Shown piece after piece: positions 24,409 through 29,473 of a stretch of 64,000 nt of DNA. Made by a program: the position numbers and the translations under genes. Numbering within the stretch: the stretch's first letter is position 1; each line of letters opens with the position of its first letter. Under the pieces are notes generated by a model. The model was given only the letters and a program-made list of their open reading frames with translations. It was not told where the DNA came from and searched no databases. Origin of the DNA: Candidatus Saccharimonadales bacterium (GTDB taxonomy: Bacteria > Patescibacteriota > Saccharimonadia > Saccharimonadales > UBA10212); contig DATIHL010000015.1 in the NCBI GenBank assembly GCA_035480715.1, forward strand, positions 8,384-72,383, written 5' to 3'.

Positions 24409-25821
24409 ATGACAGTTCGCACTAGATTTGCCCCTTCGCCTACGGGGTTTTTACATGTAGGCGGTGTACGCACAGCATTATTCGCCTGGCTGGTGGCCCG
24501 CCAAGCCAATGGAGAATTTCTACTCAGGATTGAGGACACCGACAGGGAGCGGCATATCGAAGAAGCTGAGAGGCATATCCTTGACTCGCTAAAATGGTTG
24601 GGCTTGGACTGGAGCGGTGAAATTTATCGCCAGAGCGAACAACTGGATACCTACAAAGAATGGGCTCAAAAATTGATAGACAAGGGGCGTGCCTATACAG
24701 ATCCACGCAGCGCCGATGAAGTTAGTGCCTTACGAGCCAATTCAAAGCTATCGAAAAAACCCTTTCTATTCCGGGATCACCGGCTCGACAATCCGCCGGG
24801 CTGGAATGGCAGCCAGCCACTACGGCTTAAATCCGAGCCAAAGGCCTACCAGTGGCACGATGAAGTCATGGGAGATTTGAGTACCGGGCCAGAAGTTATC
24901 GACGATTTTATCCTAATGAAGTCCGATGGCTATCCGACCTATGACTTTGCCCACATTGTTGATGACCATCTGATGGGAATCAGTCACGTGATGCGCTCAC
25001 AAGAATTCGCTTCATCAACTCCTAAATACCTAAATCTTTACGAGGCGCTGGAAATCGAGCACCCAAAACTTGCCTTGCTGCCTTATGTATTGGCGCCAGA
25101 CGGTAAAAAAAAGCTATCTAAGCGCGATGGGGCCAAAGACGTGCTTCACTATATGCGTGAAGGTTTTTTGCCTGAGGCGCTGATCAACTTCTTGGCGACT
25201 CTGGGCTGGAACGATGGAACAGAGCAGGAAATCTTTTCAGTTGATGAGCTGATTAAAAAATTTAGCCTGGAGAGAGTACAGAAGAGCGGCGCGAAGTTTG
25301 ACGAACAGCGGCTAGAGTGGATGAATGGCCATTACATCCGGCACTTACCCCTGAATGAACTTTATGCACACTCAATGGGCTTTTGGCTAAAGAGCACCGA
25401 AAATCAACCCGATAAATACAAAAAAGCTGTATTAGCGCTAGTGCAAGAGCGTTTAAAATACCTATCTGAGCTACCGAAGCTAACAAATTTCTTTTTCGAA
25501 GATTTACCAATAGATCTCAAATTAATCGATGGTAACAAGCAACTCAGCAATCTTTCACGCGGTGAACAAATAAATCTACTGGAAAAAGCTAAGGAGCGGC
25601 TGAGCGAAAGCGACTTTTCGAGCGACAGCCTAACTAAAGTTTTAAATGATCTTTTAGAAGAAACCGGTCAGAAACCGGGAGTACTTTTTAGCCTTATTCG
25701 CATAGCAACAACCTGGGCAGATGCTAGCCCCGGACTGGCAGAGACGCTGTCTTTGCTAGGCAAAGACAAAGGTCTGGAGCGTTTACAGAGGTCGATTGTC
25801 GTACTAGAACACAAATCATAA
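24409..25821 (+). CDS. gltX: Glutamate--tRNA ligase
   Basis: RFAPSPTGFLHVGGVRTALF (HIGH) and KLSKR (KMSKS), 470 aa. Confidence 0.92.
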   Translation: MTVRTRFAPSPTGFLHVGGVRTALFAWLVARQANGEFLLRIEDTDRERHIEEAERHILDSLKWLGLDWSGEIYRQSEQLDTYKEWAQKLIDKGRAYTDPRSADEVSALRANSKLSKKPFLFRDHRLDNPPGWNGSQPLRLKSEPKAYQWHDEVMGDLSTGPEVIDDFILMKSDGYPTYDFAHIVDDHLMGISHVMRSQEFASSTPKYLNLYEALEIEHPKLALLPYVLAPDGKKKLSKRDGAKDVLHYMREGFLPEALINFLATLGWNDGTEQEIFSVDELIKKFSLERVQKSGAKFDEQRLEWMNGHYIRHLPLNELYAHSMGFWLKSTENQPDKYKKAVLALVQERLKYLSELPKLTNFFFEDLPIDLKLIDGNKQLSNLSRGEQINLLEKAKERLSESDFSSDSLTKVLNDLLEETGQKPGVLFSLIRIATTWADASPGLAETLSLLGKDKGLERLQRSIVVLEHKS

Positions 25822-25845: not shown

Positions 25846-27102
25846 GTGTTTCAAGACATAAAGCCGCCAAAAAGGTCGGATTCCAAGTCGGTTAGCCATA
25901 AGTCGCTCGCCAATTTAGGTGGGCACGCTATCAATAAAGCCCGGCAGCAAATACACGAAATCCCGAATGAAGTTATTGAGGCCATTGATTTAGACGAAAA
26001 AGCTGAGAAAAATGAGAAGGTGCGCTTCCGCAGGCTAAAGGGCTGGTGGCGCCACATTGGTGAGAATCGGCGTTTTGCTATAGTCAGCGCTGCACTATTG
26101 ATTTTTATAACCGGAGCTATAGTTTATTTCTATTTCACACGCCCATCTTCCCAGACATCGATAGCAATTACTAAGCACGCTAAAAAGCCACCGGCACCAA
26201 CTACGCTGGCTTCACCACTAACCGGTGTGCAGGTGGCTCCTGAGCTGGCTAGTAGACCGGTTACGGGCATAATGATAGAAAATAGCTTGGACGCACGGCC
26301 ACAATCTGGTATCGAGCAGGCTGGAGTGATTTTTGAAGCCATCGCCGAAGGTGGCATAACTCGTTTTTTGACGCTTTATCAAGACGCCCAGCCGCAATAC
26401 ATCGGCCCAGTACGCTCATTAAGGCCATACTACATAGACTGGGCTACGCCGTTTGACGCCAGTATCGCGCACGTAGGTGGCAGCCCTGAGGCCCTGGCGC
26501 AGATCCGCAGCGGTGGCAAGGATCTGGACCAGTTCTTTAATTCTGGCAGCTACTGGCGGCAGTCAACGCGCGCGGCTCCGCACAATGTTTACACTAGCTT
26601 TGAGCGGATGGACGCACTTAATAAAATCAAGGGTTATACCAGCAGCCATTTTACTTCGTGGCCCCGCAAAGCTGATAAACCTATCGCCGTACCGACCGCC
26701 AAATCAATTGATGTCAATATAGCGAGTTTTTACTTTAACTCGCACTATGACTATGACGCATCTACTAACAGCTACTTCCGCTTTGAAGGTGGAGCACCGC
26801 ACAAGACCATAACGTCTTCTTCAGATGCCAATGCCCAGCAGCTACATCCCAAGGTACTCATCGCGCTGGTGATGCCATATAGCATTGAGGCAGACGGACA
26901 ACATAGCGCATATAGCACTTATGGCAATGGTGTGGCTTATGTCTTTGAAGACGGCGGAGTGACGCAGGGTTTATGGACTAAAGCGAACCGGGCAGACCAA
27001 TTCAAATTTACCGATGCCAGCGGCGCTCCGGTAAAGCTCAACGCCGGCCAAACTTGGGTGGTGCCAGTCGCCAGAGCTGACATGGTAGTTTACAGACCGT
27101 AG
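25846..27102 (+). CDS. DUF3048 domain-containing membrane-anchored protein (YerB-like)
   Basis: TM segment, then PVTGIMIENSLDARPQSGIEQAGVIFEAIAEGGITRFLTLYQ, typical of DUF3048. Confidence 0.75.
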   Translation: MFQDIKPPKRSDSKSVSHKSLANLGGHAINKARQQIHEIPNEVIEAIDLDEKAEKNEKVRFRRLKGWWRHIGENRRFAIVSAALLIFITGAIVYFYFTRPSSQTSIAITKHAKKPPAPTTLASPLTGVQVAPELASRPVTGIMIENSLDARPQSGIEQAGVIFEAIAEGGITRFLTLYQDAQPQYIGPVRSLRPYYIDWATPFDASIAHVGGSPEALAQIRSGGKDLDQFFNSGSYWRQSTRAAPHNVYTSFERMDALNKIKGYTSSHFTSWPRKADKPIAVPTAKSIDVNIASFYFNSHYDYDASTNSYFRFEGGAPHKTITSSSDANAQQLHPKVLIALVMPYSIEADGQHSAYSTYGNGVAYVFEDGGVTQGLWTKANRADQFKFTDASGAPVKLNAGQTWVVPVARADMVVYRP

Positions 27103-27273
27103 ATTGGCCAATTACCCCTGTTTTTGATACAATCTCCTCTGTTACTTCGTCTAAACAATTTTGTAAAATCGTGCTTTAGCGGATGTTTACAAAATTGAGA
27201 GGAGAAGCGTAGCCTTAAGCCGAAGCTTTTGACTCAGCTAGGCAAAACGAGGCAGAGGCGTAAGCTTTGACGC

Positions 27274-27348
27274 GGTCCCATCGTCTAGTGGTCAGGACAC
27301 CAGGTTCTCATCCTGGTAACAGGGGTTCGACTCCCCTTGGGATCACCA
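27274..27348 (+). tRNA. tRNA-Glu (anticodon CUC), encoded CCA
   Basis: GGTCCCATCGTCTAGTGGTCAGGACACCAGGTTCTCATCCTGGTAACAGGGGTTCGACTCCCCTTGGGATCACCA. The acceptor stem is GGTCCCA/TGGGATC and the anticodon loop is TTCTCAT. Confidence 0.9.
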
Positions 27349-27499
27349 TGAGAAAACTGAAGGATTTGTGGCAGTAGAACAATCAAGAGGTCAGGTTTAT
27401 GAAACGGCCGCGTAGGCCAAATATTGTCGAGTCTATCAAAGTGGCATAAAGTCAATATTGCTAAGCCAAATCTTGTTGGCGTAGAATTAAATTAGCCGT

Positions 27500-27566
27500 G
27501 TGAGGGCTTCCGCTCACCACTTAAATCTGTAAGTGGTGAGGGATTCCTCCTTGCAGACTACTTACA
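27500..27566 (+). promoter_or_regulatory. Leader segment with mutually exclusive helices upstream of the small-ORF/dinB operon
   Basis: Segment 27528-27540 pairs either with 27513-27523 (an 11-bp perfect stem CTCACCACTTA/TAAGTGGTGAG with a 6-nt loop) or with 27557-27566 (10 bp including one G-U). The direct repeat GTGAGGG(C/A)TTCC occurs at 27500 and 27536. Confidence 0.4.
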
Positions 27567-27791
27567 ACTCTTGGGCGGTATACTCCGGTCCCTGCCGATC
27601 CCTCAAAAACAATTAGCTCCCAGTAATGGAATCATAATAGACGGTTAGGGTTCTTAGCTGGTAGCGGGGTATAAAATCCGTCTGCTGAGTCGCTTTACAT
27701 GCGACAATCGGTTCTTTTTTAATTAACTTTAAGCTCAGCAGAACCCGCACAAATTTTCTTCGAAAACTTAGGCGGGCAAAGGGAGAAAATC

Positions 27792-28106
27792 ATGGAAAAC
27801 GTAGTTAATATCAATAAAGAAGTCAGCATCGTAGCCTACTATTTTAAAAACGGCCTCAGGCGCCTAAGGTGCTTTCCGAAAAGGATGGAATATCAGGGCA
27901 GGGTCATAGAATTTAGCGAAACCGGGCTGCGACATCCAACCAAGAAGGGACAGCGCATGATCCATGTGTTTGATATGACCGACGGCAGCGCCGATTACCG
28001 GCTGGAATTCGATGCCGAACATCTAACTTGGACACTGGTATCAATAGCTGACGTTACTGATTCACGCCAGGACATGAATTATGCCTCATCTCCAGCTGCC
28101 GCTTAA
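27792..28106 (+). CDS. Hypothetical 104-aa protein encoded directly upstream of the Y-family polymerase
   Basis: GGGAG lies 6 nt upstream of the ATG. I recognise no domain. Confidence 0.5.
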   Translation: MENVVNINKEVSIVAYYFKNGLRRLRCFPKRMEYQGRVIEFSETGLRHPTKKGQRMIHVFDMTDGSADYRLEFDAEHLTWTLVSIADVTDSRQDMNYASSPAAA

Positions 28107-28153
28107 GGGCCTTCGGCCCATAAGATACCTCGCATCGCGGGTTTCTCATCGCG

Positions 28154-28180
28154 CCGACAAAATGGAATACATTTTGTCGG
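28154..28180 (+). promoter_or_regulatory. Intercistronic 11-bp perfect hairpin between the 104-aa ORF and dinB
   Basis: CCGACAAAATG (28154-28164), loop GAATA, then CATTTTGTCGG (28170-28180). It is preceded by the GC hairpin GGGCC-TTC-GGCCC at 28107-28119. No U-tract follows either hairpin. Confidence 0.5.
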
Positions 28181-28204
28181 GCTGCTCTTCCCGAGGAAAC
28201 AGCG

Positions 28205-29473
28205 ATGCCTAACCCACAACTTCCACTCAATAAAGAGGCGCCTCAGATACTCCACATCGACCTGAATAGCTGCTTTGCAACCGTAGAGCAGCAGGCCAGG
28301 CCACTGCTTAGAGGCAAGCCACTGGCAGTTACTAATCGTAAAACACCCAATGCCTGCGTAGTGGCAGCCAGCTATGAGGCTAAATCGCGCGGCGTCAAAG
28401 TTGGTATGGGCTACCGCGACGCCAAAATGCTGGTACCGGATCTTATAATGGTCGAAACCGACCCGCCTAAGTATCACCATGTCTACCAAATTTTGGTCAA
28501 TATCATGCGATCATACTCACCAAATGTCAGCATGAAGAGTATCGATGAGGGGATTATCGATTTTGCCGGTACCCGAGAGGTTATCAATAAACGCCCCTTA
28601 ACGGTTATCGGCTACGAGATAAAGAAGCGTCTTAAAGAGGAAGTTGGCAACTGGATGACATGCAACGTCGGTATAGCACCCAACCGTTTTTTGGCTAAAC
28701 AGGCCGCATCGCTAAATAAACCAGATGGTTTAGATGTAATTACTCATAAAAACCTGCGCCGGATACTATCAGATATGGAACTAACCGATCTATTCGGTAT
28801 TGCCGAGCGCAACCAGGCGCGCTTGAATGCCTGCGGCATCTTCACGCCATTGCAGTTTTTAGATGCCCCGGCCGATCTGCTCAAAAGACATGTCTTTAAA
28901 AGTGTTTGCGGCGAAGATTGGTATCAACGACTGCGCGGTTATGAAGTAGATAATCATGAATGGGCTACCAAAACTATTGGGCGACAATATGTGCTGGACG
29001 ATATGAAACCAAGCGACGAGCTTGTGCGCTCGCGCCTGAGCTACCTGTGTGAGACTACCGGCATAAAACTGCGCTACAAGCGCCTGTGTGCACGGGGGAT
29101 TTTTGTCTATGTCAGATATGACAGCGGTGACTACTGGTACGAGCGCAAGATGTTCAAAAGCAGCTTTTTTACCAACGCCGAGATACACCGGCGAGCCACA
29201 CTGCTTTTTAACCGCCGCCCGCGCTATGCCTACCCGCGTGAAATTGGTATCAGCTGCTATATGTTGTCACCATCAAACATGAGCCAAGTAAGCCTGCTAG
29301 AGGAAGTTAATAAAGAGATCTGGTTAACAGAGGCAGTCGATCGTATCAATGAGGATTTTGGTGAATTTACCGTAACTTTTGCCAGCAGTCTTACCGCCAA
29401 AGGCGTCGTTAAGCAAAAGATACCATTCGGCTCAACCCGCTACTTTGAGTTGCTCTGTAATCGCGCCGATTGA
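28205..29473 (+). CDS. dinB: Y-family DNA polymerase (DinB/ImpB type)
   Basis: ILHIDLNSCFATVEQQARPLLRGKPLAVTN, ASYEAKSRGVKVGM and SIDEGIIDF retain the catalytic Asp/Glu positions. GAGG lies 8 nt upstream of the ATG. Confidence 0.85.
   Translation: MPNPQLPLNKEAPQILHIDLNSCFATVEQQARPLLRGKPLAVTNRKTPNACVVAASYEAKSRGVKVGMGYRDAKMLVPDLIMVETDPPKYHHVYQILVNIMRSYSPNVSMKSIDEGIIDFAGTREVINKRPLTVIGYEIKKRLKEEVGNWMTCNVGIAPNRFLAKQAASLNKPDGLDVITHKNLRRILSDMELTDLFGIAERNQARLNACGIFTPLQFLDAPADLLKRHVFKSVCGEDWYQRLRGYEVDNHEWATKTIGRQYVLDDMKPSDELVRSRLSYLCETTGIKLRYKRLCARGIFVYVRYDSGDYWYERKMFKSSFFTNAEIHRRATLLFNRRPRYAYPREIGISCYMLSPSNMSQVSLLEEVNKEIWLTEAVDRINEDFGEFTVTFASSLTAKGVVKQKIPFGSTRYFELLCNRAD

Follow-up and report, generated by a model that had tools for sequence, protein, structure and literature searches.

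The stretch of DNA analysed here, which we call the window, comprises 64,000 nucleotides of a Candidatus Saccharimonadales genome (Saccharibacteria/TM7, candidate phyla radiation, CPR), and all coordinates are given in its numbering. Between a tRNA-Glu(CTC) gene and the gene of a Y-family DNA polymerase, it holds a gene-free gap followed by an open reading frame (ORF) for a small protein of 104 amino acids (Table 1). We compared this locus with 80 species-level genome loci (L001-L080), which were fetched via the small protein. Here, we observed an RNA family with conserved helices, at a fixed position and on a fixed strand, framed by promoter and terminator signatures and followed by a conserved pair of genes. 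We lean towards the view that 27458-29473 is an RNA-controlled translesion-synthesis operon, whose leader would be a riboswitch-like attenuator.

Of the gap, the ~110 nt directly 3' of tRNA-Glu show no conservation among the relatives. The conserved unit is 27458-27724, which consists of a promoter, a structured RNA of ~230 nt and a terminator-like hairpin with a U-tract. Nucleotide-level conservation was traced by nhmmer over leader positions ~100-395 (window ~27448-27743) in about 40 loci, and the leader nucleotides are kept even at loci where the small protein is only 65-70% identical. A preliminary description of this DNA had taken the 443 nt to be non-coding. This held, since none of the leader reading frames, compared among the relatives in every frame, is conserved. 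The leader RNA folds with -78.6 kcal/mol, compared with -63.1 +/- 4.9 kcal/mol for shuffled sequences (z = -3.15).

The RNA contains the helices P1 and P1a, a P2 hairpin and a long P3-P4-P5 hairpin, whose loop L5, (A)GACGG, caps P5 and pairs with the tail in a pseudoknot. This last pairing was left out of the covariance model described below, yet it is 98% paired, and RNAalifold gave it independently. An A-rich linker lies 5' of the pseudoknot 3' strand, and the terminator-like hairpin directly abuts this strand on its other side. In a MAFFT alignment of 23 sequences, 90.9% of the cells were paired, as against 38-48% with slid partners, double changes occurred at 32 pairs, and the observed value was reached by none of 500 shuffles. 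For 74 model-aligned sequences, 87.2% of the cells were paired (~40-47% with slid partners) and the covariation score was 0.465, compared with 0.18 in the controls; across both alignments, the number of pairs with double changes was 32-49. The preliminary description had named conservation and covariation in relatives sharing the gene pair as a check of the leader, and both are strong and far above controls. Indeed, sequence comparison shows a genuine, conserved and structured RNA in the leader, and its layout is the cis-regulatory one that had been surmised: promoter, fold, terminator and ribosome-binding site (RBS). Among the unpaired bases of the junctions, AGCC, UUCC, AGACU and GAACGGU never vary. 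Invariant junction bases are typical of ligand-binding or tertiary-structured RNAs.

Table 1. Features of the locus in window coordinates
Feature	Position	Strand	Evidence or remark
Glutamyl-tRNA synthetase (GluRS)	24409-25821	+	
DUF3048 protein	25846-27102	+	
tRNA-Glu(CTC)	27274-27348	+	
Gene-free gap, 443 nt	27349-27791	+	
Sigma-70-type promoter	27458-27487	+	-35 TTGCTA, 18-nt spacer, -10 TAGAAT; promoter scan
Conserved structured leader RNA, ~230 nt	27494-27724	+	Covariance-model match 27489-27724, 163 bits
P1	27499-27506 / 27548-27555	+	97-100% paired, double changes at 7/8 pairs
P1a	27509-27511 / 27541-27543	+	All pairs covary; invariant internal loop UUCC
P2 hairpin	27573-27583 / 27588-27602	+	~92% paired; lower helix 9/9 pairs with double changes
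P3	27616-27623 / 27658-27665	+	90-97% paired, 7 covarying pairs
P4	27628-27632 / 27650-27654	+	78% paired, 5 covarying pairs
P5	27633-27637 / 27645-27649	+	Covaries on inspection; outside covariance model
Pseudoknot, loop L5 with tail	27639-27644 / 27678-27683	+	98-100% paired, 4 covarying pairs
Terminator-like hairpin	27685-27693 / 27701-27711, AA bulge, then UUCUUUUUU; to 27720	+	Covarying stem
Shine-Dalgarno (SD) AGGGAG of small ORF	27780-27785	+	Read from sequence
104-aa ORF; all-beta protein, probable divergent standalone ImuB-C/DUF6504-like	27792-28106	+	Homologues, AlphaFold2 fold, weak DUF6504 matches
Spacer, 98 nt, between 104-aa ORF and polymerase; intercistronic hairpins, ~95-nt repeat element	28107-28204	+	Homologous copies in relatives
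Y-family polymerase, 422 aa	28205-29473	+	Pfam IMS 2.4e-34, IMS_C 8e-7
Histidine kinase, response regulator, Der	downstream of polymerase	+	

Several structures that the preliminary description had emphasised proved to be present, and only part of them belongs to the conserved fold. The perfect 11-bp stem 27513-27523 / 27530-27540, for which an alternative pairing with 27557-27566 had been proposed, is an extra extension at the tip of P1a, which is specific to the window and found in no other locus, and the alternative pairing involves this insertion and is not conserved; the direct repeat GTGAGGG(C/A)TTCC (27500-27511 and 27535-27546) is likewise window-specific. The nested stems placed at 27640-27685 and 27686-27739 correspond to the pseudoknot (seen as GACGG 27640-27644 / CCGTC 27680-27684) and the terminator hairpin (the T-tract hairpin 27685-27720), both of which are conserved, and to a helix, 27684-27691 / 27733-27740, that is limited to the window and its close relatives.

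P2 is an optional part of the family. The bases of its internal loop are conserved (A.AC / GUC.CUG), and the hairpin is missing or replaced in seven loci. It is wholly missing in L012, L050 and L068; in L001, L009, L011 and L013, short UUAGCU/AGCUnnUAGC-like tandem repeats replace or precede it in the region aligned to 27568-27605. These repeats resemble the P3 5' strand.

How widely is this RNA distributed? We built a covariance model, R1, without the pseudoknot and counted matches at E<=1; the RNA scans covered ~0.6 Mb of local sequence and the one 64-kb window. R1 matched 73 of 81 sources, every match lying on the + strand and directly 5' of the first small ORF. With the filters off, four further weak matches brought the total to ~77 of about 79 evaluable species-level loci. 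There is a single match per locus and a single one in the window, and the distance from the end of the match to the start codon of the small ORF has a median of 28 nt (<=40 nt in 56/73 loci). In 374 kb of unrelated metagenome DNA (80 loci, chance returns of a too-loose pattern scan), the model matched nothing, and blastn with the leader RNA found no match in a phage collection. A search of Rfam 15, both at the gathering threshold and at E<=10, gave no match to the leader, only two tRNAs passing; the best Rfam models within the leader were those of snoRNAs (E 0.28 and 3.1), far under their gathering scores. The cmscan-type check that had been suggested for the leader thus assigned it to no Rfam 15 family. 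In full-text literature searches, we found no description of such an RNA element, nor of a structured RNA leader for a translesion polymerase operon. Going by these searches, the leader RNA is a previously undescribed family and a lineage-specific addition to a known type of operon, the latter because distant relatives of the gene pair outside the clade have short leaders without the RNA.

The promoter is as constant as the RNA behind it. In nearly all of 72 loci, the elements TTGC and TAnAAT of the pattern TTGCnA-18 nt-TAnAAT stand at a constant distance 5' of the RNA, and transcription would start near A27494, with which the invariant 5' AGCC begins. Among the loci compared, an operator-like inverted repeat was seen in the promoter of a subset only, with no overall enrichment, and tblastn with E. 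coli LexA detected no LexA-like gene in the window and the 80 loci. At the 3' end of the RNA, both stem parts of the terminator-like hairpin (helices 11 and 12) covary, its median energy is -7.6 kcal/mol, and 72 of the 73 tails have at least six T within 18 nt; a simple terminator scanner skipped the hairpin at 27685-27711 owing to its bulge. GGAG-type sites precede the start codon of the small ORF in nearly all loci, and the good RBS ascribed to the 104-aa ORF is present as AGGGAG.

Two further structures of the leader are confined to the window and its closest relatives. One is an 8-bp helix, 27684-27691 / 27733-27740 (CUGCUGAG/CUCAGCAG), which surrounds the terminator and whose 3' arm abuts the SD in L002 and L005; the other is a CCCGC/GCGGG hairpin (27744-27748 / 27772-27776) just 5' of the SD. 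Both may form a lineage-specific second layer of control.

That the leader is mere read-through from the tRNA gene was rejected: in relatives, the tRNA is missing or points the other way, and the conserved -10 box is fixed relative to the 5' end of the RNA. As to the tRNA gene itself, it stands beside the module on the same strand in some relatives, is absent in many and is inverted in e.g. L002, L008, L013, L016, L022, L037 and L046, which suggests that this spot has repeatedly undergone local inversion or rearrangement. Some 140 nt 5' of tRNA-Glu, the end of the DUF3048 gene is overlapped by promoter-like sites in 27077-27133 (CTGACA-17-TAGATT, and TTGGCC-18-TACAAT with TG), which are candidate promoters of the tRNA.

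The small ORF and the polymerase form a conserved partnership. Its product is 100% identical to the NCBI protein VLE51_02745 and has 952 homologues at E<=0.01, all of ~85-110 aa. A profile search of 1.84 billion representatives returned 251 clusters at 50% identity, while two further large protein searches yielded only close relatives. Against Pfam, NCBIfam and PHROGs, the window protein gave nothing above threshold. AlphaFold2 with 85 sequences predicted a seven-strand all-beta model (predicted local distance difference test, pLDDT, 84; predicted template modelling score, pTM, 0.72), for which neither comparison with solved structures (PDB) nor sequence comparison gave a significant match. 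W80 is invariant across 85 diverse members, as is P29, and R24, K30 and R55 are conserved in the close set. The number of homologues (>950), the many invariant residues and the confident fold led us to reject a spurious ORF.

A first indication of its relationship comes from Pfam DUF6504 (PF20114), which gave sub-threshold, colinear matches in 13 of the 85 diverse members (best E 4e-4). Scanned singly, four members score 14-16 bits, compared with a cut-off of 24.2, and the window protein has no match; in P0258, residues 3-82 match model positions 4-102 of 103. The same model matches residues 442-512 of the ImuB encoded upstream of DnaE2 on pSymA of Sinorhizobium meliloti. A full-length ImuB orthologue of Novosphingobium (L202; NZ_CP017078.1 45457-47280), whose gene sits between imuA and an error-prone polymerase gene, is labelled 'DUF6504 family protein' by NCBI. 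Because of this naming, DUF6504 is effectively the ImuB-C domain, a link of which our literature searches gave no mention. Direct comparison gave weak signals: hhalign of our alignment A4 with nine alphaproteobacterial ImuB C-termini produced a 28-column local match with a probability of 5%, and hmmsearch of ImuB C-termini recovered the motif PxrxeWxGrxy at 8 bits.

ImuB-C is described as a beta-rich domain with a highly conserved C-terminal Trp and conserved basic residues, whose standalone forms mostly lie beside DinB-type polymerases, often with SRAP or LexA (PMC3765255; PMC6511836; PMC12926913); it has been proposed to bind nucleic acid (PMC3765255). On these grounds, the small protein is probably a divergent member of an ImuB-C/DUF6504-type family. 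The preliminary description had regarded it as a possible unrecognised analogue of UmuD or YolD. The analogue idea gave way to the weak colinear DUF6504 matches and to standalone ImuB-C as an already known polymerase partner, and neither Pfam nor the comparison of the predicted structure with solved ones revealed a sequence or fold link to UmuD or YolD. Indeed, across the 85 members, there was no match to Peptidase_S24, as UmuD would require, nor to PF08863 of YolD, and no significant structural match to either in the PDB.

The polymerase had been described as catalytically intact-looking, and we agree: the IMS and IMS_C domains are present, and D19 and D114-E115 are intact as read from the sequence. 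Residues 374-397 carry a weak DUF4113/RecA-NT-like motif (E 0.027, 14.9 bits, compared with a cut-off of 24). Among NCBIfam models, those of DinB type, and not UmuC, score best (~182 bits, under their cut-offs), and the protein also matches phrog_1268. With these features, it would match the type "active PolY + RecA-NT + ImuB-C".

The small ORF is counted as neighbour of a Y-family polymerase gene in 79 of the 80 related loci, the remaining one ending too early. The polymerase gene lies just 3' of the small ORF in 77 loci; in L065, it is found 2.5 kb further on, and in L024 and L077, the sequence stops within ~25 nt of the small-ORF match. The stop of the small ORF overlaps the start of the polymerase in 57 of 78 loci (median spacing -17 nt) and, therefore, the two genes are likely to be translationally coupled in most relatives. 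Five species carry two tandem, diverged small ORFs 5' of the polymerase (L054:3410-3962, L056:3724-4270, L063:3613-4300, L070:3642-4264 and L079:3745-4282); the extra copy is 38-51% identical to the window protein, and the RNA lies 5' of the first copy. Distant family members of 87 aa overlap an IMS polymerase gene in L210:1767-3951 and L212:3269-4790, where the leaders, only 92-221 nt long, contain promoters of the type TTGAC...TAATC and are devoid of the RNA motif; in L210, an SRAP (PF02586) gene follows the polymerase, forming a small-ORF-PolY-SRAP operon.

Because of the frequent gene overlap, the 98-nt spacer of the window is atypical among the loci compared. The two stable intercistronic hairpins reported for it are present and belong to a repeat element of ~95 nt, with copies in relatives at L001:7688-7782, L011:7796-7869 (minus strand) and L022:4368-4448. 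There, it occupies varied intergenic sites in both orientations, and it is absent between the two genes in most relatives; no second copy was found in the 64-kb window. It may be a small mobile or REP (repetitive extragenic palindromic)-like element, and its hairpins lie, by this comparison, outside the conserved module.

The gene pair resembles operons in which a standalone ImuB-C accompanies an active Y-family polymerase, such as lexA-imuB-C-polY of Geobacter sulfurreducens and the operons of ImuB-C, DinB and SRAP (PMC3765255; PMC6511836). The likeness comprises an all-beta protein (~85-105 aa) whose C-terminal Trp is conserved and whose gene lies directly 5' of, and often overlaps, the polymerase gene, an intact polymerase with a possible RecA-NT-like tail and, in distant members, a subsequent SRAP gene. 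It is limited in that all DUF6504 matches are sub-threshold and alphaproteobacterial ImuB C-termini gave no significant result in profile comparison; moreover, unlike in lexA-imuB-C-polY, no lexA lies in or near the operon, and a structured RNA leader is found upstream instead. Nonetheless, on this sequence evidence, the gene pair probably adds a new and divergent member to the ImuB-C + PolY arrangement that is already known. A small accessory gene directly 5' of a Y-family polymerase within one operon also links it to UmuD-UmuC (Pol V) and YolD/YqjX-UvrX/YqjW, and the weak DUF4113/RecA-NT-like motif would be a further likeness to them; however, the seven-strand beta meander predicted here has no significant match among solved structures, UmuD' included, and the polymerase scores best with DinB-type models, not UmuC.

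What could a conserved RNA do in front of such a gene pair? As only a median of 28 nt separates the end of the model from the start codon, there is no room for a second promoter in most species. Given this, and since relatives carry the tRNA in inverted orientation or lack it, the operon can be transcribed only through the RNA, which is thus a leader able to attenuate expression. We infer that the structured RNA probably controls when the mutagenic polymerase is made. Transcription would begin at about 27494 from a constitutive-looking sigma-70 promoter. The first ~190 nt would fold into P1/P1a, the optional P2 and the long P3-P4-P5 hairpin, and the 6-nt hairpin loop would then pair with the sequence directly 5' of the terminator-like hairpin to form the pseudoknot. 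By default, transcription would stop at the U-tract (~27720), releasing an RNA of ~225 nt and keeping expression of the downstream genes low. A putative effector, a metabolite or a protein, would act at the junction and pseudoknot core and alter the frequency of read-through into both genes. The RNA would here occupy the place that LexA or another operator-binding repressor takes upstream of comparable imuB-C-polY operons.

This layout recalls the fluoride, preQ1 and ZTP riboswitches, which act on transcription and have a pseudoknot between a hairpin loop and a 3' tail beside an intrinsic terminator. The order of promoter, aptamer-like fold, hairpin with U-tract and RBS is the same, as are the position of the pseudoknot 3' strand beside the terminator, the A-rich linker before this strand and the invariant junction bases. 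Unlike these riboswitches, the leader matches no Rfam sequence or structure and showed no conserved antiterminator among the pairings tested, and its ligand is putative. We speculate that the RNA could be a new riboswitch class or a direct RNA sensor that couples a DNA-damage or nucleotide-pool signal to the expression of the mutagenic polymerase. Damaged or free nucleobases, a deoxynucleoside triphosphate (dNTP) or another nucleotide would be candidate signals, and the RNA would then substitute for SOS control in LexA-poor, genome-reduced CPR bacteria. This extension is tentative, and we consider it rather doubtful. In a bolder variant of it, the terminated ~225-nt RNA would itself work together with the ImuB-C-like protein and the polymerase.

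Several observations weigh against a riboswitch-like attenuator. The terminator hairpin is only moderately stable, with a gap of 3-4 nt between the stem and the U run, ~10 divergent members have no clear terminator hairpin, and P2 is dispensable in some species. We found no conserved antiterminator or mutually exclusive pairing in three tests against controls: no pairing was supported between the P1-P2 linker J1/2 (invariant CAGACU) and the terminator 5' strand (mean p 0.44), and for the 5' AGCC with the terminator 3' strand, as well as for the P3 5' strand with the base of the terminator 5' strand, covariation was no better than in shuffles or expected from composition. In members with short leaders, the pseudoknot 3' strand showed no enriched complementarity to the SD either. 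In addition, the loci were ascertained through the small protein, so that copies of the RNA elsewhere in the genomes are possible.

Since no conserved antiterminator was found, the terminator is moderate, P2 is dispensable and about ten members have no clear terminator, a stand-alone RNA and a protein-bound leader stay serious rivals. The former would be an autonomous small RNA with its own promoter and terminator that acts in trans or as the ribonucleoprotein (RNP) partner of the ImuB-C-like protein or the polymerase, e.g. as a scaffold, recruiter, template or primer, with read-through providing only basal expression of the operon. A discrete transcript bounded by promoter and terminator signatures would suit such a role, as would the missing conserved antiterminator among the pairings tested, the very tight linkage to the gene pair (~77/79 loci) and the conserved basic residues of the small protein, ImuB-C being a proposed nucleic-acid binder (PMC3765255). 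Structured RNA genes linked to the gene of a partner protein do exist, as in OLE RNA-oapA, Y RNA-rsr and the retrons (msr/msd-RT). In these, as here, the RNA lies on the same strand directly 5' of the protein genes and co-occurs with them in almost every genome; unlike in them, a complex of RNA and protein is conjectural here, and the present RNA lies within the sole visible transcription unit of the operon, which makes it at least a leader. Indeed, the terminator lies <=40 nt from the start codon in most loci and no second promoter is visible, so that the operon depends on transcription through the RNA whatever other role the RNA has. Any targets or bound proteins would be putative, and the more distant homologues of the gene pair do without the RNA. 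We regard an autonomous RNA as unlikely.

The leader could instead be bound by a protein and need no small-molecule ligand, as in the leaders of ribosomal-protein genes, with the ImuB-C-like protein, the polymerase, RecA or another RNA-binding protein setting termination or translation in an autoregulatory or attenuator circuit. The architectural evidence for a riboswitch-like attenuator speaks for this equally; a modular, optional P2 with conserved loop bases is common for protein-binding sites, and no alternative-pairing switch was detected. However, Pfam and NCBIfam reveal no recognisable RNA-binding domain in the operon proteins, and the many invariant junction nucleotides together with the pseudoknot would suggest a compact tertiary fold rather than a simple operator, for which reasons we hold it to be quite improbable. 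That nothing here is functional, so that the leader would be hairpins formed by chance, read-through from the tRNA or a small protein gene missed in annotation and the 104-aa ORF would be spurious, could draw on the missing Rfam match and on an ORF with no Pfam, NCBIfam or PHROGs match above threshold. Covariation far above controls, the lack of a conserved leader ORF and the variable orientation of the tRNA, together with the conservation and predicted fold of the small protein, already refute it, and we give it hardly any weight. On balance, a riboswitch-like attenuator remains the reading that we favour for the leader.

Error-prone polymerases are dangerous, and cells control them tightly. 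To our knowledge, this control is protein-based in the bacteria studied so far, through the LexA/RecA SOS response, UmuD cleavage or proteolysis. If an RNA-controlled translesion-synthesis operon is indeed what we found, it would show how mutagenesis is regulated in an ultra-small symbiotic lineage. Riboswitch-like RNAs would gain a further orphan class, one that has a pseudoknot, is represented by ~77 species-level examples and covaries with unusual clarity, and there would be a defined RNA with which to screen for a damage-related ligand or a protein partner. The pairing of ImuB-C with PolY, a "minimal mutasome", would be extended to Saccharibacteria with a divergent ImuB-C-like family of >950 proteins that are so far unannotated and labelled hypothetical.

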